56,309 bases of DNA, taken from the IMG/VR virus record IMGVR_UViG_3300046171_000013, positions 1 to 56,309 of that record. One strand, 5' to 3'. The translations under genes were made by a program, and so were the position numbers. The notes under the pieces were generated by a model. It had not been told where the DNA came from, made no database searches, and saw only the letters and a program-made list of their open reading frames with translations. How positions within the stretch are numbered: position 1 is the stretch's first letter; each line of letters begins with the position of its first letter. This document shows positions 1,999 through 48,043 of this stretch, one piece after another. This DNA comes from a virus (lineage: Duplodnaviria > Caudoviricetes).

Positions 1999-2467
1999 AA
2001 TCGAGAACCGCCATGGTGGCGGCGTGCCTGACGTACATTTTGCATGGTCTGGGCTTGTATTCTGGATAGAATTAAAAACAACTAAAAACAACACGGTTCG
2101 ATTATCGCCGCAACAAATCGCGTGGAATACCGCGTATTCGCGTAATGGCGGCTTGTCATTCATCTTGGTTAAGCACCTCCCTTCGGGTGACCTAATTTTG
2201 TTTGAAGGCGCCCAGAGCCTTGAAATCGGGCGCAATGGGCTAAGATCGGGGAGCTTGTTTCGGGGTTCGGGACACCAGGACCTGTGGCACCAGGTTCGGG
2301 AGTCGGGGATCGGGCATCTTGAATCGGTACTGGCGCAGCTTCGGGGTTCGGGAGTCGGGGATTCGGGTTCGGGGATCGGGGATCCTGGACCTGGGCAGCC
2401 AGGGACTGGTGCCCCAGTACCAGGGTTACAGCAACCTGGGCTCGAGGCAAAAGAAAAGGAGGCCTAA
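1928..2467 (+). CDS. VRR-NUC-like / Holliday-junction resolvase-like PD-(D/E)xK nuclease
   Basis: GVPDV...WIELK...LSPQQIAW motif; the low-complexity C-terminus is encoded by the TCGGG array. Confidence 0.8.
   Translation: MPTPEANFWNTVRRNLPKSCYPTRIENRHGGGVPDVHFAWSGLVFWIELKTTKNNTVRLSPQQIAWNTAYSRNGGLSFILVKHLPSGDLILFEGAQSLEIGRNGLRSGSLFRGSGHQDLWHQVRESGIGHLESVLAQLRGSGVGDSGSGIGDPGPGQPGTGAPVPGLQQPGLEAKEKEA
2226..2382 (+). repeat. TCGGG repeat array 1 (G-quadruplex-capable)
   Basis: More than 10 same-strand TCGGG(G) copies; six G-tracts in 2343-2381. Confidence 0.85.
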
Positions 2468-2483
2468 GCCTCCTCCTCCTTTA
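2449..2483. terminator. Terminator between convergent genes
   Basis: AGGAGGC-CTAA-GCCTCCT hairpin with an A-tract on the left. Confidence 0.6.
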
Positions 2484-2607
2484 TGCTATCCTCGATCTTG
2501 TCGATCAAGGCGCCGAAGGCTGCGAATATGTCTCTATCCTCCGGATCCTTTTCGCATTGCTCAACGACAATGTGCTTTATGTGCATGATGATATCTTCTT
2601 TGGTCAT
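2464..2607 (-). CDS. Small hypothetical protein (47 aa)
   Basis: MTKEDIIMHIKH...; ATGA overlap with the upstream gene. Confidence 0.6.
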   Translation of the reverse strand: MTKEDIIMHIKHIVVEQCEKDPEDRDIFAAFGALIDKIEDSIKEEEA

Positions 2608-3212
2608 TTCACAGCCTCTACAATTTGAGTAACGCCATTGTTCGGCGTATAGCATAGCAAGCAATCCTTGCATTTTTGGCCGGTGCAATTTTGTGGCGCG
2701 TCACTGTCCGGTGATACGTTGTTAAACGTCCGGTCAAAGAATGCCGGCGGATTGTCCATTACCGCGTCAATGCGCGGGTTGCTATAGATAAGGATAAGAT
2801 TCGCGGGTTTTTGGTTCTGCATATAAAACTTGCGAATCCATCCTTTGCGCTTTGTCCACAATGCAAAAGAGCAATGCGGATTATGTAACGTGATGTTGTG
2901 GAAATTTTCCAGCATGGTCAGGTTTATCAATTCGCCATGACCGGAAAACCTAAAAAATGCGTCTAGGATTGTCGGCAACATATGCTCCGGAATCAATCCA
3001 CCGGACAACATATCGCTATTGTGTTGCCATGCGGGAGCGCAATTTTTGCGCAATCCGTTTAGCATCTCAACGCTATAGCACTCTGTGCATATGATTGACG
3101 GATCCCCGCACGCGCTCATTTTCATGCAATATTCATTGGTCAGCGTGTTCGTGTTCAATGCTTTGAACCCGTCCAGCTTGCCTGTCATTTTAGAAATTTT
3201 CAAAACGTCCAT
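2604..3212 (-). CDS. Gp88-like Cys-rich phage protein
   Basis: Start MDVLKISKMTGKL with ATGGAGG RBS; C..C..CxxCY, FRFSGHGE, LWTKR and C-terminal CxxxxCxxCxxC motifs recalled for the Gp88 family. Confidence 0.65.
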   Translation of the reverse strand: MDVLKISKMTGKLDGFKALNTNTLTNEYCMKMSACGDPSIICTECYSVEMLNGLRKNCAPAWQHNSDMLSGGLIPEHMLPTILDAFFRFSGHGELINLTMLENFHNITLHNPHCSFALWTKRKGWIRKFYMQNQKPANLILIYSNPRIDAVMDNPPAFFDRTFNNVSPDSDAPQNCTGQKCKDCLLCYTPNNGVTQIVEAVK

Positions 3213-3238
3213 TGTAATCCTCCATAGTTTACAAGTTA

Positions 3239-3276: not shown

Positions 3277-3349
3277 TTCGGGTTCGGGTTCACCTGGACC
3301 ACGACCTGGTCGGGCAGCCTCGAGTCGGGTTCGGGTTCGGGATTCGGGA
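3277..3349 (+). repeat. TCGGG repeat array 2
   Basis: GGGTTCGGGTTCGGGATTCGGG at 3327-3348 plus three further copies. Confidence 0.85.
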
Positions 3350-3354
3350 CTAAT

Positions 3355-3407
3355 AAAAACGCCCAGGGACTGGCCCTGGGCGCCGCTCTAGTATGGAGGA
3401 CTAGAAA
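3355..3407 (-). ncRNA. Putative anti-Shine-Dalgarno hairpin RNA module followed by a terminator
   Basis: TCTAGT-CCTCCAT-ACTAGA stem-loop, then CGCCCAGGG-CCAGT-CCCTGGGCG-TTTTT; 15 nt identical to 18609-18623. Confidence 0.55.
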
Positions 3408-3418
3408 CAAAAACAAAT

Positions 3419-3443
3419 AAAAGCCCAGTCTCGAGGACTGGGC
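3419..3443 (-). terminator. Intrinsic terminator
   Basis: GCCCAGTC-CTCGA-GACTGGGC-TTTT. Confidence 0.7.
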
Positions 3444-3482: not shown

Positions 3483-3941
3483 CTAGGCGTATTCAGATTG
3501 GAGATGTTCGTCTATCTCATCCCCATCCTGTATTTCATTGTGATAGAAATCCCCATCAACAGAATATTCGCCATGGTATCCCATGCCATATTCCACATAT
3601 TTGGCGACTAGATTGAATCCCTGTTTAATCATCTCATCATATACAGGGATTGGTGGCGACCATGCTGTGTCGAATTTGAACACATATGTCTCGCCATTCT
3701 CATCGCTATAGATTTCATCTGTATCCCATGGCGAACAGACATCCCATTTCGTGCCCCAATTATCGCACGCCCAATCATACCAATTAGGAGAGTCTGAAGG
3801 AGATGTTGTATCCTTCAATGCTTCTGGCATGGGTTTGATATGGTCGCACATCTCGCCATTGATGATGGCGTCTTTCAACGCCACCATCTTGTTTTTGTCT
3901 GCATGAGACACATAGATTACATTCTGACACCAATTAGGCAT
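3483..3941 (-). CDS. YubB/DUF1281 ferredoxin-like family protein
   Basis: MPNWCQN...WYDW...NWGTKWD...FDTAWSPP signature. Confidence 0.8.
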   Translation of the reverse strand: MPNWCQNVIYVSHADKNKMVALKDAIINGEMCDHIKPMPEALKDTTSPSDSPNWYDWACDNWGTKWDVCSPWDTDEIYSDENGETYVFKFDTAWSPPIPVYDEMIKQGFNLVAKYVEYGMGYHGEYSVDGDFYHNEIQDGDEIDEHLQSEYA

Positions 3942-4302
3942 AGATAGATACCTCCGTTTCTGAGAGACGAATGTCCAATTCACCATTCCGGCGGACACGA
4001 ATCATTTGTTGTTCTGACAATGGGATGAACTCCGCGAAATCATCTCCGCTTACATCATGAGTCTTTTCCCATAAATCCTTAACGCGCGGAGAATATCCAC
4101 GCGCATAGATAACGTGACATTTGTTTTTGCTAACAATGTCACGCTCTGACGATGGTGACATCAGATAGATGCCCTCATCCTTTACAAGCCACAAACCATA
4201 TTCATCTGTGGTCTCATCCACATAAGGAATTTTGCGGTCATGCTTGACCATGTGGTCAATCATTCTCGCGAACTCTTTACTTCTAAACTTTAGTCTATGC
4301 AT
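3934..4302 (-). CDS. DUF3085 family protein
   Basis: LVKDEGIYLM...YARGY.P...GDDFAEFI signature. Confidence 0.75.
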   Translation of the reverse strand: MHRLKFRSKEFARMIDHMVKHDRKIPYVDETTDEYGLWLVKDEGIYLMSPSSERDIVSKNKCHVIYARGYSPRVKDLWEKTHDVSGDDFAEFIPLSEQQMIRVRRNGELDIRLSETEVSIYA

Positions 4303-4331
4303 CTAATCCTCCATTGGTTATTGCATATCTC

Positions 4332-4360
4332 ATTATAACTAATAACAAACTAAACACAAA
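4332..4360 (-). promoter_or_regulatory. Early sigma70-like promoter
   Basis: TTGTGT-N16-TATAAT, directly after a terminator. Confidence 0.6.
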
Positions 4361-4361
4361 C

Positions 4362-4405
4362 AAAAAGAGCGGCATCTCTGCCGCTCTTTCCGTCCTATGG
4401 AGGAA
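4362..4405 (-). terminator. Intrinsic terminator preceded by an anti-SD sequence
   Basis: TTCCTCCATAGGAC, then AAAGAGCGGCA-GAGA-TGCCGCTCTTT-TT. Confidence 0.75.
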
Positions 4406-4669
4406 CTAAATCCTATCCCATGATCTTGGATTGTCTCTGTGATCCTCGTCAACATAGCGATCTGTGATCTCATATTTCGTGCCCATGCTGTCAAGTTTGT
4501 TCAGATACTTTGGAAAATCGCAATCTTCCTCCAGCGCGTATATCTCACCATTAGGCGTTTGGTATGAGCATTGTGAGAAATCTGCCGCAGACATCCGCGC
4601 AGCCGCGAGCTGTTCTCTTGAAACGATGCCCCAGCCATGTCCTTGGTCTGTGATAAATACGATATTCAT
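4406..4669 (-). CDS. Conserved phage early hypothetical protein (DxGHGW...LEEDCD)
   Basis: MNIVFITDQGHGW...YALEEDCD; ATGGAGGAC RBS. Confidence 0.75.
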   Translation of the reverse strand: MNIVFITDQGHGWGIVSREQLAAARMSAADFSQCSYQTPNGEIYALEEDCDFPKYLNKLDSMGTKYEITDRYVDEDHRDNPRSWDRI

Positions 4670-4694
4670 TTTGTTGTCCTCCATAGACAGGTTG

Positions 4695-4793: not shown

Positions 4794-4838
4794 ATTCGGA
4801 TCGGGTTCGCTATGATTCGGGTCGGGTCGGGTTCGGGA
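4794..4838 (+). repeat. TCGGG repeat array 3
   Basis: GGGTCGGGTCGGGTTCGGG at 4819-4837. Confidence 0.85.
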
Positions 4839-5471: not shown

Positions 5472-5693
5472 CTATTTCCAAGTGAACATCATGCGCGTCT
5501 GCACATATGCCGCCTTGGCTTTCACATTGAAATCTTGAGGCTGCTTGAATGCCAAGTCAGCCTCTATGGCTTCCGCCTCAATATCCGCTTTGGCTTGCGT
5601 CCATGCTTTGACCATCTCTTTGGCCATGTCATGTTGCGCTTTGATTTCAAGATTGTTGAACTCACCGGCGCGGATAAATTTGGTTTTAGTCAT
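5472..5693 (-). CDS. First gene of the early island, hypothetical
   Basis: MTKTKFIRAGEF...; ATGGAGGAC RBS. Confidence 0.65.
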   Translation of the reverse strand: MTKTKFIRAGEFNNLEIKAQHDMAKEMVKAWTQAKADIEAEAIEADLAFKQPQDFNVKAKAAYVQTRMMFTWK

Positions 5694-5766
5694 GTTGTCC
5701 TCCATATGACAAGTTTGCTTTGGGGTCGCTTGGCTATTGCCGTCCGATTTCCCTTAATGTCCTATG

Positions 5767-15670: not shown

Positions 15671-16562
15671 GGAGATGGTGATGGCAGAAGCTCAAGCAGT
15701 TGAAGAAGAGAATGTTGAGGTAACACTTGACGAGGATCAGAAACAGCCAGAGGTACAGGAAGACGCTCCTCAAGTAGAGGAAACGTCTGCTAAAGATGCT
15801 GATGGCGATGAACTGGACAATTATAGCAAGGGTGTGCAGAAGCGCATCAAGAAGCTAACAGAAAAGTATCGCTATGCAGAGCGCGACAAAGAAGAGGCTG
15901 CCCGTCTGGCAGAAGTGCTCAAGCAAGAGAACGAACAGCTAAAGACTAAACTTAGCAATCTTGATCAAGGTTATCTGTCTGAGTACGGCACTCGGCTTGA
16001 CTCGCAACTTGATACAGCTAAACGCTCGTATCGCGAGGCTCATGATCGCGGTGACGTTGATGCGATGTTTGATGCGCAACAAGCGCTATCTAAAATCTCT
16101 ATTGAGCAAGAGCGGTTCCGTCTGGCTAAACAGCGGCAGGAACAGCAAGTTGCACAGCCTGTGCCTCAACCCACAGAGGTTCAGCAGCCGGCGCCTCAAG
16201 CGGCGGCGAAGCCTGATCCGAAAGCTGAGAAGTGGGCAGAAAAGAACACATGGTTTGGTGAAGATGAGATCATGACCCAAGCCGCATTTGTTATTCATAA
16301 TAATCTAGTCAACGAAGAAGGGTTTGACCCGAACAGCGATGACTACTATGATGAACTAGACAGCCGTATCAAAAATCGGTTTCCGAATGATATGGGTGTC
16401 AAGCAGAACGAGGGAAGTTCTAGGGTCGCCTCGGCTTCAACTTCCGCATCTCGTAGTAATCGACAGGGGCGCAGGACCGTCAAGTTGTCACCATCACAGG
16501 TGGCTATGGCTAAGAAACTGGGCGTACCTCTTGAAGAATACGCCAAGTATGTGAAGGAGTAA
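15663..16562 (+). CDS. Capsid scaffolding protein
   Basis: Acidic coiled-coil protein ending in LSPSQVAMAKKLGVPLEEYAK; lies upstream of the capsid genes. Confidence 0.75.
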   Translation: MSEEMVMAEAQAVEEENVEVTLDEDQKQPEVQEDAPQVEETSAKDADGDELDNYSKGVQKRIKKLTEKYRYAERDKEEAARLAEVLKQENEQLKTKLSNLDQGYLSEYGTRLDSQLDTAKRSYREAHDRGDVDAMFDAQQALSKISIEQERFRLAKQRQEQQVAQPVPQPTEVQQPAPQAAAKPDPKAEKWAEKNTWFGEDEIMTQAAFVIHNNLVNEEGFDPNSDDYYDELDSRIKNRFPNDMGVKQNEGSSRVASASTSASRSNRQGRRTVKLSPSQVAMAKKLGVPLEEYAKYVKE

Positions 16563-16565
16563 GCA

Positions 16566-17024
16566 ATGGCTGACCAGAACAACCGCGTCAAACGCAACAC
16601 GCGATAAAGAAACGCGCAGAAAACCATGGGCACCGCCCAGTCACCTTGATGCACCTGACGCCCCGATGGGTTTGTGCATCGTTGGATACGATTCGCAATG
16701 CGAGGCGAGGAAGACAAAATGAACGTCCACTGCCAAGCTTCGTGAAGGATGGGAACCTGTCCGAGCGACGAGTATCCACGACTATGAAGCCCTGATATCG
16801 ACGATGGCAATATGCAGGTGTTATTGGACAAGGTGGACTGATGCTGTGCCGTATACCTGAAGAGACAGCGCAGAAAGAACCGCAGTATTACGGGGGCCGA
16901 ACCCGCGAACAAATGACTGCTGTAGATCAGGACTCTGATGAAGGAACAACATCCTTCAATGCCGATCAGTAATAATCGGCAAAGTCGTGTAACTTTCGGA
17001 GGTCGTCAACGCGACTCCGAGTAA
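16566..17024 (+). CDS. Conserved head-module protein (several apparent read errors; missed by the ORF track)
   Basis: Pieces read RKPWAPPSHLDAP.AP.GFVHRWIR...KLREGWEPVR...GVIGQGGLMLCRIP...RQSRVTFGG in shifting frames. Confidence 0.7.
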
Positions 17025-17043
17025 TTAGAGGAGTATTGCTATC

Positions 17044-17682
17044 ATGGCAAATACTAATGGTGCCTTCGGACTTCGTCCGATTGGTGTGGTCGGTCAGGCC
17101 GCAAACACCACTGGTGCGACTGAATATCGTATCGCCTCTGGGAACACAAACGCGATTTACCAAGGATCCCCTGTTATCCCGCTGTCAACTGGCTTCATTG
17201 ACATTGTTGGCGCGGCGGCTGGTGGATCTGTAGGTCTTGTTGGTGTTTTCTGGGGTTGCGAATACGTTTCGTCTACCACTGGTGAGAAAATTTTCTCAAA
17301 CTACTGGCCTGGTTCTGGCGCGGATTCAAATCACCCCGTCAAAGCCTTCGTGTATGACAATCCAATGCAAACATTTGTTATCGCATCAGACGCTTCATTG
17401 ACTGATGAATCGACTGCACGCGGTCATGTGTTCGCTAACGCAAACTTTGCAACAGGTGCTTCTGGTTCAACAACCACTGGTATCTCTTCTGCTAAGTTGG
17501 GTGTCAGCACAATCGCTACTACTGCTGCACTTGCACCTTGCGTATCATGGGCATTCAGGATGACCCTGAAAACTCAGACTTACGCAGCGGCTGGTATCCC
17601 TGTAATCGTTCGATTGAATAACAGCTTCAACTCCGCCAACGGTGCGATTGTCGCTGGTACTCCATCGACTACTGGCGTATAA
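17044..17682 (+). CDS. Capsid cement / decoration protein
   Basis: MANTNGAFGLRP..., Gly/Ala/Thr-rich; immediately before the MCP. Confidence 0.7.
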   Translation: MANTNGAFGLRPIGVVGQAANTTGATEYRIASGNTNAIYQGSPVIPLSTGFIDIVGAAAGGSVGLVGVFWGCEYVSSTTGEKIFSNYWPGSGADSNHPVKAFVYDNPMQTFVIASDASLTDESTARGHVFANANFATGASGSTTTGISSAKLGVSTIATTAALAPCVSWAFRMTLKTQTYAAAGIPVIVRLNNSFNSANGAIVAGTPSTTGV

Positions 17683-17695
17683 GGAGGCTCACTAA

Positions 17696-18603
17696 ATGGC
17701 TATTTCTCGCGCACAACTAGCGAAAGAGCTGGAACCGGGCCTCAACGCCTTGTTTGGTATGGAGTACAACCGGTACGAAAACCAACACGCAGAGATCTTC
17801 ACAACTGAATCTTCAGATCGAGCATTTGAAGAAGAAGTTATGTTATCCGGTTTCGGCGCGGCACCGACTAAATCGGAAGGTTCCGCAGTCAACTTTGACG
17901 ACGCTAACGAAGCATACACTGCTCGTTACAACCACGAAACATTGCGCTGGCATTCTCAATCACTGAGGAAGCTATCGAAGACAATCTCTATGATCGTCTT
18001 GGTTCGCGTTATACTCGTGCGTTGGCTCGTTCAATGGCACACACAAAGCAGGTTAAAGCTGCTGCATTCTTAACAACGCGTTTACGGCTGGTGCGTCTGC
18101 TGGTGGTGACGGTGTTGCACTTTGTGCGACATAACCATCCGCTTACTAACGGTGGTACGTTTGCCAACGAACCAGCACTGCTGCTGATTTGAACGAAACA
18201 TCTCTTGAAGATGCTTTGATCAACATCGCAGGTTTTGTTGACGAGCGTGGTTTGAAAGTTGCTCTTCGTGGCACTAAGTTACTTATCCCTCGTCAGCTGC
18301 AATTCGTTGCAGAACGTCTGATGGTTTCAAACCTTCGTGTTGGTACAGCGGACAACGATACAACGCACTTCGTCAATGGGAATGTTGCCTGACGGTTATG
18401 CCGTTAACGACTTCCTGACAGACCCAGATGCGTTCTTCATCATGACAGATGCTCCTCGTGGATTGATCCACTTTGAGCGTACTCCACTGTCCACAAACAT
18501 GGAAGCAGACTTCGACACAGGCAACATGCGGTTCAAGGCTCGTGAGCGTTACAGCTTCGGCTTCTCAGACCCACGTTGTGTGTTTGGTTCACCAGGCGCA
18601 TAA
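17696..18603 (+). CDS. Major capsid protein (HK97 fold, Mu gpT-like); frameshifted in this read
   Basis: MAISRAQLAKELEPGLNALFG...SDRAFEEEV...; C-terminal DFDTGNMRFKARERYSFG.SDPR; pieces 17696..18073, 18189..18392 and 18337..18603. Confidence 0.9.
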
Positions 18604-18657
18604 AGATCCTAGTCCTCCATACTGGGTAAAGGGCGGCTTTTCAGCCGCCCTTTTTTC
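18604..18657 (+). ncRNA. Anti-SD hairpin plus terminator at the 3' end of the capsid transcript
   Basis: CCTAGT-CCTCCAT-ACTGGG, then AAAGGGCGGC-TTTTCA-GCCGCCCTTT-TTT. Confidence 0.6.
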
Positions 18658-18666
18658 TGTTAGCCT

Positions 18667-18738
18667 GTAAGAACCTTACGCGATGTAAGTTTCCTCCCTA
18701 AACTCGGAGCCGTCTTAATTGCGGCTTCGCTTTTTTTC
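18667..18738 (+). ncRNA. Putative stand-alone small RNA with a CCUCCC loop (cuckoo-like)
   Basis: GTAAG-AAC-CTTAC; AGTTT-CCTCCCT-AAACT; CGGAGCCG...CGGCTTCG-CTTTTTTT; possible TTTTCA-N17-TAGCCT promoter. Confidence 0.5.
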
Positions 18739-18800
18739 GTGTATGCTAGATTTACCCTGACAGGTCCAGTGTGGATCTGACACTAGCCACGACAGGAGAT
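18719..18800 (+). promoter_or_regulatory. Promoter and structured leader
   Basis: TTGCGG-N17-TATGCT; CCTG...CAGGTCCA-GTG-TGGATCTG...CAGG nested stems overlapping the AGGAG RBS. Confidence 0.4.
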
Positions 18801-18804
18801 TTAC

Positions 18805-19287
18805 ATGGCTAATACTACCTTTAGCGGACCAGTCCGCTCCGAAAACGGATTCAGTGCGATTGCAAAGAACGCAACCACAGGCGCCGTGACCAGCAACATT
18901 TCTATGACCACCTACACAGCAAGCATTACGATTGCTGCTAGCGGTACATCTCACAAAGAAGCGTCTATTGGCATCCCTGCCAACTTCATTCCAATGGGTG
19001 TAGCGGTTGTTGTGACAGGTGCTACTGCTAACAACATCAACCTTGTAGACATCGGCACAGACGCTGATACAGATGGTTTTGTTGACGGCATCTCTGTTGC
19101 TCTCAACTCAACCGGTTTCAAAGGTTTCTTCCCTTGTAACGGTGTTCTTGGCATGTCTGGTGGCACAACCACTGCCGCTACTGAAACTCCGGACGAGGTA
19201 GAGGTTGTGATTTCTGGCACTGCTGGTGCTGGCGGTGTTTTGGTACTGAAGTTCTTCGGAATTGATACTACTTCTGACACAGCTTAA
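18805..19287 (+). CDS. Virion structural protein (head fibre/decoration-like)
   Basis: MANTTFSGPVRSENGF N-terminus; Thr/Gly-rich. Confidence 0.7.
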   Translation: MANTTFSGPVRSENGFSAIAKNATTGAVTSNISMTTYTASITIAASGTSHKEASIGIPANFIPMGVAVVVTGATANNINLVDIGTDADTDGFVDGISVALNSTGFKGFFPCNGVLGMSGGTTTAATETPDEVEVVISGTAGAGGVLVLKFFGIDTTSDTA

Positions 19288-19299
19288 TAGGAGGGCACT

Positions 19300-19572
19300 A
19301 TGGCTGCTTCTATTTTTGCAAAGACGGCGACAGCGACTGGCACCTTAAACGGTGGCAGAACTCGACTGAAGGCTTTCTATGTTCAGACCGCGTCTAGTGG
19401 TTCCCCACAGGTCGTATTTAAGAACGGCAGTGGTGGGGCAACCTTGTTAGATATGGTTTTTAACACTTCAGACGATACGCAGGTCAGTATTCCGGATCAC
19501 GGTATAATTTTTGATGATGAGTGTCATGTAACACTGACAAACATTACATCAATAACAGGGTTTTTCGGCTGA
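19300..19572 (+). CDS. Small virion structural protein
   Basis: 90 aa, beta-rich, strong RBS. Confidence 0.7.
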   Translation: MAASIFAKTATATGTLNGGRTRLKAFYVQTASSGSPQVVFKNGSGGATLLDMVFNTSDDTQVSIPDHGIIFDDECHVTLTNITSITGFFG

Positions 19573-48016: not shown

Positions 48017-48043
48017 AAAAAGAGGGGGAGGCGAACCTCCCCC
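48017..48043 (-). terminator. Intrinsic terminator between the SSB and primase genes
   Basis: GGGGGAGG-TTCG-CCTCCCCC-TCTTTT. Confidence 0.75.

Follow-up and report, generated by a model that had tools for sequence, protein, structure and literature searches.

Terminator-linked CCUCC elements of an uncultured marine phage and their possible pairing with early ribosome sites

Genome context and the four modules

The IMG/VR virus record IMGVR_UViG_3300046171_000013 (56,309 bp, completeness estimate 97%, G+C ~50%; the whole stretch is referred to here as the window) contains four short modules, in each of which a CCUCC(A/C)U motif lies immediately 5' of a strong intrinsic terminator. Module M1 (18608-18659, plus strand) occupies the capsid gene's 3' untranslated region (3'UTR), M2 (18688-18737, plus strand) forms a separate unit beyond the first terminator, and E (3404-3351, minus strand) and E2 (4405-4358, minus strand) belong to the early left arm. 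Over its first 83 residues the capsid protein shares 81% identity with its counterpart in Pelagibacter phage HTVC023P, identity to the proteins of Roseobacter phages CRP-901/902 is 58%, and the DNA polymerase is 50-55% identical to those of HTVC023P-type phages; because of these identities the window is assigned to an uncultured marine phage of the HTVC023P type, an abundant marine phage group. Relatives recognised by capsid and DNA polymerase matches infect Pelagibacter, Roseobacter, cyanobacteria and one gammaproteobacterium, and no single host is assignable. A Megablast search of positions 16500-19500 against cultured phages gave no match, and a protein search with the 582-amino-acid gene gave a single weak match.

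Small genes are carried by the minus strand at 1-5.9 kb, and small and replication genes by the same strand at 42.4-56.3 kb; the structural block (6.0-42.4 kb) is on the plus strand. The sequence TCCTCCAT occurs in the window in 11 copies vs 1.50 expected, a number reached in 0 of 100 shuffles. Three copies are in transcription sense just upstream of a terminator (18613-18620, plus strand; 3393-3400 and 4397-4404, minus strand), and five are complements of minus-strand left-arm ribosome sites (at 1056, 3218, 4307, 4677 and 5698). The exact 10-mer GTCCTCCATA is found in transcription sense at 18612-18621 (plus) and 3392-3401 (minus), and its complement makes up the ribosome sites at 4676-4685 and 5697-5706. 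There are 12 terminator-like sites in the window (at least 7 pairs, at least 5 of them G-C), four of which have the motif no more than 32 nucleotides (nt) upstream. Other terminators are made of GGAGG/CCUCC arms themselves (window 2456-2475, 48024-48043 (-), and near locus position 540-610 in relatives L207, L212, L213 and L216; examples are GGGGGAGG..CCUCCCCC and GGAGGCGGC..GCCGCCUCC), the sequence resembling an anti-Shine-Dalgarno (anti-SD) being paired in the 3' arm.

An earlier note on this DNA had described four CCTCC-type sites ahead of terminators, and all four are present as it described them. The 15-mer that it reported as common to M1 and E is indeed identical in both (0.12 matches expected in the window with up to 2 mismatches allowed), at 18609-18623 (plus) and at 3390-3404 (minus), the latter correcting 3389-3403. 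Its further proposal that a short stem presents the motif is borne out by folding for M1 and E and is not supported for the other two modules: the E2 motif is not in a conserved hairpin, and the weak AGUUU/AAACU stem suggested for M2 is not formed in the minimum-energy fold.

Elements downstream of the capsid gene

The M1 hairpin (18608-18626, plus strand) starts 5 nt past the capsid stop codon (18601-18603) and folds into a 6-bp stem (18608-18613 / 18621-18626) with the 7-nt loop CCUCCAU (18614-18620), followed by terminator 1 (18628-18659, plus strand; 11-bp stem, 7 G-C pairs, U-run), with a folding energy of -25.0 kcal/mol and z -3.6. For the capsid C-terminus, IMG/VR has at least 600 coding stretches; 80 of these were sampled, together with 120 found via the downstream Mu-gpT-DE motif. 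The capsid end was present in 189 of 204 loci and was followed by a terminator in 188 of the 189. Between capsid stop and terminator (142 distinct segments, mean 28 nt, 103 lineage clusters), CCTCC is the commonest pentamer, found in 36/142 sequences and 26/103 clusters, where composition shuffles of the 103 clusters gave 1.5 expected and a maximum of 6 in 1000. The enrichment is strand-specific, as GGAGG occurs there in 5 clusters only.

After the capsid gene the motif is met in three settings: as CCUCC(C) in a 6-9-nt loop on at least six further unrelated stems; unpaired ahead of the terminator; and, in class b, as CCUCCCUG, which forms the 3' foot of a co-varying hairpin that has an invariant TG-n-TA ahead of it, just past the stop codon. 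The class-b order of TG-n-TA, co-varying hairpin, CCUCCCUG and terminator was seen in L032, L044, L024, L006 and 21 other relatives; the TG-n-TA resembles an extended -10 element, and a transcript starting 7 nt downstream of it would lack the GAGG arm that pairs with CCUC. The class-b element looks like a stand-alone small RNA (sRNA) gene, with its anti-SD paired in read-through RNA and free in RNA made from its own putative promoter, which might give masked and unmasked isoforms; alternatively, the motif may be part of a helix. At the capsid 3' end of CRP-901, a hairpin with a CU-rich loop replaces the motif.

In M2, the seed AGUUU-CCUCCCU-AAACU (18688-18704, plus strand; CCUCCCU at 18693-18699, unpaired in the minimum-energy fold of -20.1 kcal/mol, z -1.8) is preceded by a candidate extended -10, TGTTAGCCT (18658-18666, plus strand), which overlaps the end of the terminator 1 U-run, and is followed by terminator 2 (18705-18737, plus strand; 9-bp stem, U-run), whose stems differ among relatives with compensating changes. 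A seed of the form (C)CUCCC-N1-3-ACU(C/U) is present in 21/21 distinct relatives that have M1, all of which run on into the Mu-gpT-DE element described below, and TGTTAnnn follows terminator 1 in 18 of these 21, positions 3-5 of the hexamer being variable. From the -10-like element to the seed, both length and sequence are free to vary, as is usual in small-RNA genes, and M2, with its -10, seed and terminator, is probably a separate gene of this kind. Four RNA libraries contain capsid-region sequence. A near-identical contig from an RNA library (3 differences in 346 nt) spans 18668-19013, passing through terminator 2 into the next gene, and is a weak hint only. A 12-nt complement (2 G-U) between the 5' part of M2 and the ribosome site of the next gene was rejected as due to chance, the site being different in relatives such as L309.

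Modules of the early arm

The E hairpin CUAGU-CCUCCAU-ACUAG (3388-3404, minus strand; stem extendable to 3406/3386) lies downstream of the operon 3934-4302 + 3483-3941. It consists of a 5-bp stem and the loop CCUCCAU and runs into the E terminator (3351-3384, minus strand; 11-bp stem, 8 G-C pairs, U-run, compensating changes at 3/9 pairs), with -26.0 kcal/mol and z -4.1 for the fold. A weaker terminator upstream (3415-3443, minus strand), absent in L207-type relatives, places E between two terminators.

The loop, (C/U)CCUCCA, is kept in 23/23 loci that are homologous around gene 3483-3941 (E-values <=2e-12). In the model-fitted alignment 89.0% of cells were paired vs 80.1% in shuffles (29-56% in slid controls), and the covariation score of 0.234 vs 0.109 in shuffles was reached by 0/500; since sequences with a 6-nt loop stand one column out of register there, these pair counts understate pairing, and unconstrained folds were used as well. 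Folded without constraint, all 15 distinct E sequences took the shape of a hairpin followed by a terminator; the loop, of 6-10 nt, contained CCUCC and was carried by at least five unrelated stems (CUAGU, UACUAGU, UAUGGU, CGUAGU, CUUGUUG, CUUGUUA). A pattern search with the E terminator gave 15 stretches, of which 14 belonged to the set before and one, L271, is an unrelated high-GC sequence.

Direct repeats CCCGA(A/C) were noticed on the minus strand at 2363-2373, 3278-3288, 3325-3341 and 4827-4837 (CCCGAMCCCGA, 5 exact matches vs 1.14 expected in the window). Their place is just past E-type terminators and ahead of the early promoter and ribosome site that come next; all E loci have them, also in lineages that use another terminator, and they may be a protein-binding array.

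The E2 motif UUCCUCCAUAGGAC (4392-4405, minus strand) directly follows the stop codon TAG (4406-4408) of gene 4406-4669 and is joined to a terminator (4358-4395, minus strand) found by both folding and terminator scan; the fold has -30.5 kcal/mol and z -5.6. The combination of CCUCCAUAGG and terminator is present in 14/14 loci listed, behind at least three different upstream coding ends. E2, E and M2 are syntenic in four near-complete genomes (the window, G001, G002 and G003), and G006, which is more distant, carries a module like E2 together with a capsid-downstream element resembling the sRNA MmgR. In IMG/VR, 69 stretches contain the exact 15-mer hairpin, 32 of them after a capsid stop, 17 in an early arm and 20 elsewhere, with several different terminators, so that the identity of the module does not depend on its context; as chance could give about that many 15-mer matches in the collection, it is the contexts and not the count of 69 that serve as evidence.

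Early ribosome sites and predicted pairing

Early and late genes differ in their ribosome sites. Among early or non-structural genes 12/38 have GGAGGA within the ribosome-site window, vs 0/52 among late genes (Fisher 1e-5); for GGAGGA(C/T) the counts are 10/38 vs 0/54. Conversely, GGAG(A/U)C is found in 8/54 late vs 0/38 early or non-structural genes. By these counts there are two distinct ribosome-site dialects within one phage. The GGAGGA split recurs in G001-G003. In G006 GGAGG is significantly split, 12/30 vs 1/29, and GGAGGA, at 4/30 vs 0/29, not significantly (p 0.11); G007 and G009 have neither the modules nor the early/late split. A shared host preference could explain this correlation of modules and site split across genomes.

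Several early sites on the minus strand are predicted targets. The longest match is to the ribosome site and spacer AUGGAGGAUUAGA (4302-4314) of gene 3934-4302, the first of the operon that ends with E, with 13 contiguous pairs for E and 12 for M1 (G-U allowed); the site UAUGGAGGAUUA (3215-3226) of gene 2604-3212, the next after E, makes 12 pairs with E and M1, G-U allowed. Ten Watson-Crick pairs connect E and M1 with UAUGGAGGAC (5697-5706), which belongs to the first left-arm gene 5472-5693 (AUG 5693-5691) and is listed beside the early-site sequences AUGGAGGAUUAG and AUGGAGGAUUAGAUG, and with CUAUGGAGGAC (4676-4686) of gene 4406-4669, a predicted target of E2 as well, E2 matching this gene, its own, by 10 Watson-Crick pairs and one G-U. 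The pairing of E, M1 and E2 with early sites reaches beyond the GGAGG core into the spacer; M1 makes 5 pairs only with the ribosome site of its own capsid gene. The complementarity to early ribosome sites pointed out earlier is thereby upheld, with 10 Watson-Crick pairs, or 12-13 with G-U, and with the 12/38 vs 0/52 distribution of GGAGGA. Long runs obtained by permitting G-U freely were discarded as spurious, e.g., the 14 pairs of E with gene 36438, just 5 of which are Watson-Crick.

The gain on cofolding with M1 has a median of -9.1 kcal/mol for 13 left-arm sites vs -3.7 kcal/mol for 52 late sites (p 0.0035). The left-arm preference of E2 gave p 0.065, and M2 cofolding showed no preference for left-arm sites (p 0.9). 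In the leader of gene 4406-4669 (minus strand), GUAGGGAG at 4750-4743 and CUCUCCCUAC 33 nt further (4710-4701) were read by eye; the two might pair into a long-range helix a little ahead of the ribosome site, and CUCCCUA there is similar to the M2 seed.

A change of loop and sites together is seen in relative L219, where the E loop is GCCCUCCAAU (GUCCUCC in all other lineages) and three early sites read UGGAGGGCA (UGGAGGAC in other lineages). This natural double change, U to C in the loop and A to G in the sites, leaves E of L219 with 12 perfect pairs to its own early sites and with <=8 nt to those of any other lineage.

Interpretation

The modules are real, conserved RNA-level elements. As to their role, a reading that we hold with about as much belief as doubt is that all four are phage-encoded anti-ribosome-site RNA elements, which would pair with early mRNAs. 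What the data show is the sequence, folds, conservation, stem covariation, complementarity, early/late site difference and one loop-target co-change; we infer accumulation of the RNAs, the pairing itself, its direction and its timing. In each module (U)CCUCC(A/C)U would be exposed immediately ahead (5') of a strong terminator, at what may be a stable RNA 3' end, and would pair there with the Shine-Dalgarno (SD) sequence and spacer of early mRNAs of the UGGAGGA(C/U)UA type, so that binding of the 30S subunit would be blocked and the mRNA perhaps made to decay. E and E2, as elements of 3'UTRs, each find their best partner in the gene that opens their own transcription unit, and would make early operons self-limiting in cis or in trans. 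M1, the same hairpin carried by the capsid mRNA, could act in trans only and would add further repression late in infection. The M2 seed resembles that of alphaproteobacterial MmgR, and M2 may target host mRNAs.

Several observations weigh against this pairing role. The labels "early" and "late" are inferred from gene layout and order, and the genes were called with a crude script. Early sites are likewise favoured by a generic anti-SD tail (p 0.0053), the extra early preference of the E/M1 seed beyond it is modest (p 0.015), and the early/late contrast is largely one of Shine-Dalgarno strength; the left-arm preference of E on cofolding is not significant (p 0.098). About three quarters of the capsid-downstream lineages are without the CCTCC motif and about one quarter have it; it is absent downstream of the capsid gene in the cultured phages HTVC023P and DSL-LC04. 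Conservation of the loop with compensatory changes in the stem, which the earlier note had looked to as support, was found for E, with 23/23 loops and at least 5 stems, and fails for M1 in relatives G002 and L058, which retain the stem and lack the loop motif. In many class-b relatives CCUC pairs with the upstream GAGG in the read-through fold. The L219 co-change is a single supportive event, not a general pattern, since the E modules of the other lineages cross-pair about equally, leaving own-genome specificity to L219 only, and since E2 is unchanged in L219; the cross-genome permutation gave p 0.052 with Watson-Crick pairs only and 0.0011 with G-U, on rows that are non-independent. The RNA data are contigs of mixed relatives, maybe including DNA, in which starts, ends and strand are not resolved and gaps in cover carry no meaning.

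The RNA-based early-to-late switch proposed in the earlier note is only partly supported and is one plausible reading: the match of loop and site and the L219 co-change speak for it, and the position of E and E2 on early transcripts, the loss of the M1 loop motif in two relatives and the missing early preference of M2 against it. E and E2, carried by early transcripts and each fitting best the gene at the head of its operon, suggest built-in feedback rather than a silencer made late. A wider scheme, which we consider doubtful, is a temporal programme run by RNA only, in which UGGAGGA(C/U)UA would be an early code, absent from late genes with their GGAG(A/U)C, 17-nt hairpin cassettes on early and capsid terminators would shut early translation, first by operon feedback and then globally, and a captured MmgR-like seed (M2 and the L015 type) would reprogramme the host.

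A different possibility is that the modules have host targets: they would mimic the host's own anti-SD sRNAs of the MmgR or cuckoo kind or block host ribosome sites of the GGAGG type in general, and the match to phage early sites would be a side effect of these being strong SD sequences. The nearest Rfam families are indeed alphaproteobacterial sRNAs with anti-SD seeds (RF00519, at 24.3 bits for M2 and 35.8 for L015; SorX, at 28.1 for L032), M2 has no left-arm preference (p 0.9), and early sites are favoured by a generic anti-SD tail too. On the other side, the gathering score of RF00519 was reached by none of 36 sources; the matches of E, M1 and E2 to phage sites extend over 10-13 nt, spacer included, and in L219 the loop and the phage sites changed together. 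The comparison covered phage sites, and on balance a host-directed function of the modules seems unlikely.

The hairpins might also be furniture of the 3' end acting in cis, which aids termination or protects from exonucleases with a loop that pairs with nothing. All modules adjoin a terminator, a plain hairpin without the motif occupies the M1 position in many relatives, e.g., L037, L040 and L058, and the M1 loop motif is dispensable in two relatives. Such a role would leave unexplained why the E loop is far more conserved (23/23) than its stems, why CCTCC exceeds shuffles 17-fold and on one strand, why E2 and many relatives show the motif without a hairpin, and why the complementarity runs into the target spacer; we regard it, too, as improbable.

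Quite unlikely, in our view, is a third alternative, in which the modules are protein-binding hairpins like lambda nut/boxB and a protein decides on read-through at the adjacent terminator. It would fit the conserved loops and co-varying stems ahead of terminators in early transcripts, the position of E between two terminators, the RNA-library contig that passes terminator 2 into the next gene, and the conserved CCCGA(A/C) arrays after the E terminator, which suggest protein control nearby. Loop length, however, varies from 6 to 10 nt, E2 and class-b elements do not present the motif in a hairpin, and the co-change of loop and ribosome sites in L219 is left unexplained; no candidate binding protein turned up, no search having been aimed at boxA or an N-like protein.

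It is scarcely credible that the modules are functionless by-products at the DNA level, i.e., inverted early ribosome-site cassettes spread by recombination with promoter and terminator cassettes: the 5' arm and loop of E are the reverse complement of a ribosome site plus spacer, its 3' arm resembling that spacer, M1 and E share an identical 15-mer and have different terminators, and early sites are near-identical cassettes, but the modules hold four syntenic places in four near-complete genomes and occur in dozens of lineages, with loop, pairing and strand specificity kept.

Neighbouring features

Beyond terminator 2 lie a -10-like sequence, TGTATGCT (18740-18747, plus strand), outside the flagged modules, and the Rfam element Mu-gpT-DE (18755-18807, plus strand; 67.3 bits vs a gathering score of 49), which comprises the 5'UTR, ribosome site and AUG of gene 18805-19287 and was found at gathering score in 20/20 relatives scanned. 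Mu-gpT-DE looks like a translational leader, since CCUG on its 5' side pairs with CAGG in that gene's ribosome site. A homologue of gene 18805-19287 is annotated as cement protein in phage DSL-LC04.

The capsid gene itself (17696-18603) is broken across four reading frames, with five single-base deletions and one insertion relative to L058, L036 and L029; eight relatives have intact capsid genes of 300-307 amino acids, and one RNA-library contig has an additional A after 17940. The broken frames probably stem from faulty assembly of a gene with high coverage and micro-diversity, or may reflect a defective copy.

Comparison with known systems

At gathering score, the only Rfam match in the whole window was Mu-gpT-DE (RF03012). 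M1 and M2 share with it the setting, an intergenic region downstream of a gpT-like capsid gene; it is, however, a separate element at the 5'UTR of the next gene, and the flagged modules (18604-18738) lie upstream of and outside the model. Sub-threshold Rfam matches (MmgR, ncS025, SorX, SorY, MicX) are driven by seed and terminator.

The closest of these families is RF00519 (MmgR / alpha-r8, 'suhB'), an sRNA that depends on Hfq and takes part in polyhydroxybutyrate control. M2 resembles it in having an unpaired seed of the UUUCCUCCCU type (GUUUCCUCCCUAAACU in M2, GUUUcCUCCCUAgACU in the consensus), separated by a few bases from a Rho-independent terminator, and relative L015, the best match, aligns to the consensus over seed and terminator. 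The 5' stem-loop of the family was aligned only as an unshown insertion with low-similarity flanks, and in L015 it would overlap the end of the capsid gene. Unlike MmgR, M2 is phage-encoded and directly follows a capsid gene, and its score lies below the gathering score of 41, which none of the sources (the window, 15 loci and 20 loci) reached.

The earlier note had also referred to alphaproteobacterial cuckoo/CcsR-type sRNAs, as acting on SD regions by way of hairpin loops. According to the excerpted text of PMC4615179, cuckoo or alpha-r14 sRNAs (CcsR1-4, NfeR1) comprise 2-4 hairpins side by side, 24-50 nt in size, whose 9-27-nt loops each carry CCUCCUCCC, and are thought to pair with ribosome-binding sites through these loops. 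A conserved, C/U-rich anti-SD-like loop on variable stems is common to both. As far as that text describes the cuckoo class, the present modules differ in having one hairpin of 17-19 nt per unit with a loop that measures 7 nt in the window (6-10 nt among relatives), in their loops CCUCCAU (M1, E) or motif CCUCCCU (M2), each fused to its own terminator, and in the position of CCUCCUCCC, which in some relatives sits in a helix arm or tail and not in a loop. Cuckoo sRNAs also bind Hfq and have a chromosomal, alphaproteobacterial setting; the modules stand on a virus record. No cuckoo, CcsR or alpha-r14 name was among 19 Rfam matches (E up to 10) over 18300-19000; the features that define the class are thus lacking, and the likeness amounts to a functional analogy.

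A second analogue is the icaR mRNA of Staphylococcus aureus, in which a C-rich anti-SD motif of the 3'UTR pairs with the 5'UTR of the same mRNA, as the excerpts of PMC3868564 describe it. The icaR pairing is reported to lower translation and to promote cleavage. E2 is comparable in matching its own gene and E in matching the first gene of its own operon; to judge from promoter- and terminator-like sites, each presumably shares one transcript with the matched gene. In contrast to icaR as described there, M1 has just 5 pairs with the capsid site, the motif is in or near a small terminator-fused hairpin, the setting is a phage and not a chromosomal regulator, and an unrelated mRNA, that of the capsid gene, carries the module too, with action in cis impossible there.

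Among phage RNAs, the passages of PMC12197685 on c4 RNA of P1/P7 describe loops complementary to the ribosome-binding region of the phage gene ant, whose translation it blocks in immunity. The modules likewise place a loop complementary to a phage ribosome-binding region in a phage RNA; c4, as described in those passages, hits one mRNA, whereas the four module copies match a class of early SD-plus-spacer sites. The same passages of this 2025 phage sRNA review contain no such module class, and the main texts of the genome papers PMC9599517 and PMC10149686 have no mention of terminator, sRNA, promoter or non-coding. Literature searches on phage sRNAs with anti-SD features and on Mu-gpT-DE, the latter giving only a methods paper in which the element is named, yielded no description of such modules.

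Bacteria are known to make small RNAs with anti-SD seeds, and a few model phages have single antisense RNAs that lie over a ribosome site. If the pairing role proposed here is true, it would represent a new, protein-free way for a lytic phage to time gene expression, by a modular anti-ribosome-site cassette. This cassette would be distinct from the known cases in being reused at the 3' ends of several early-operon mRNAs and of the capsid mRNA, and in addressing an early-specific code made of the SD sequence plus spacer.

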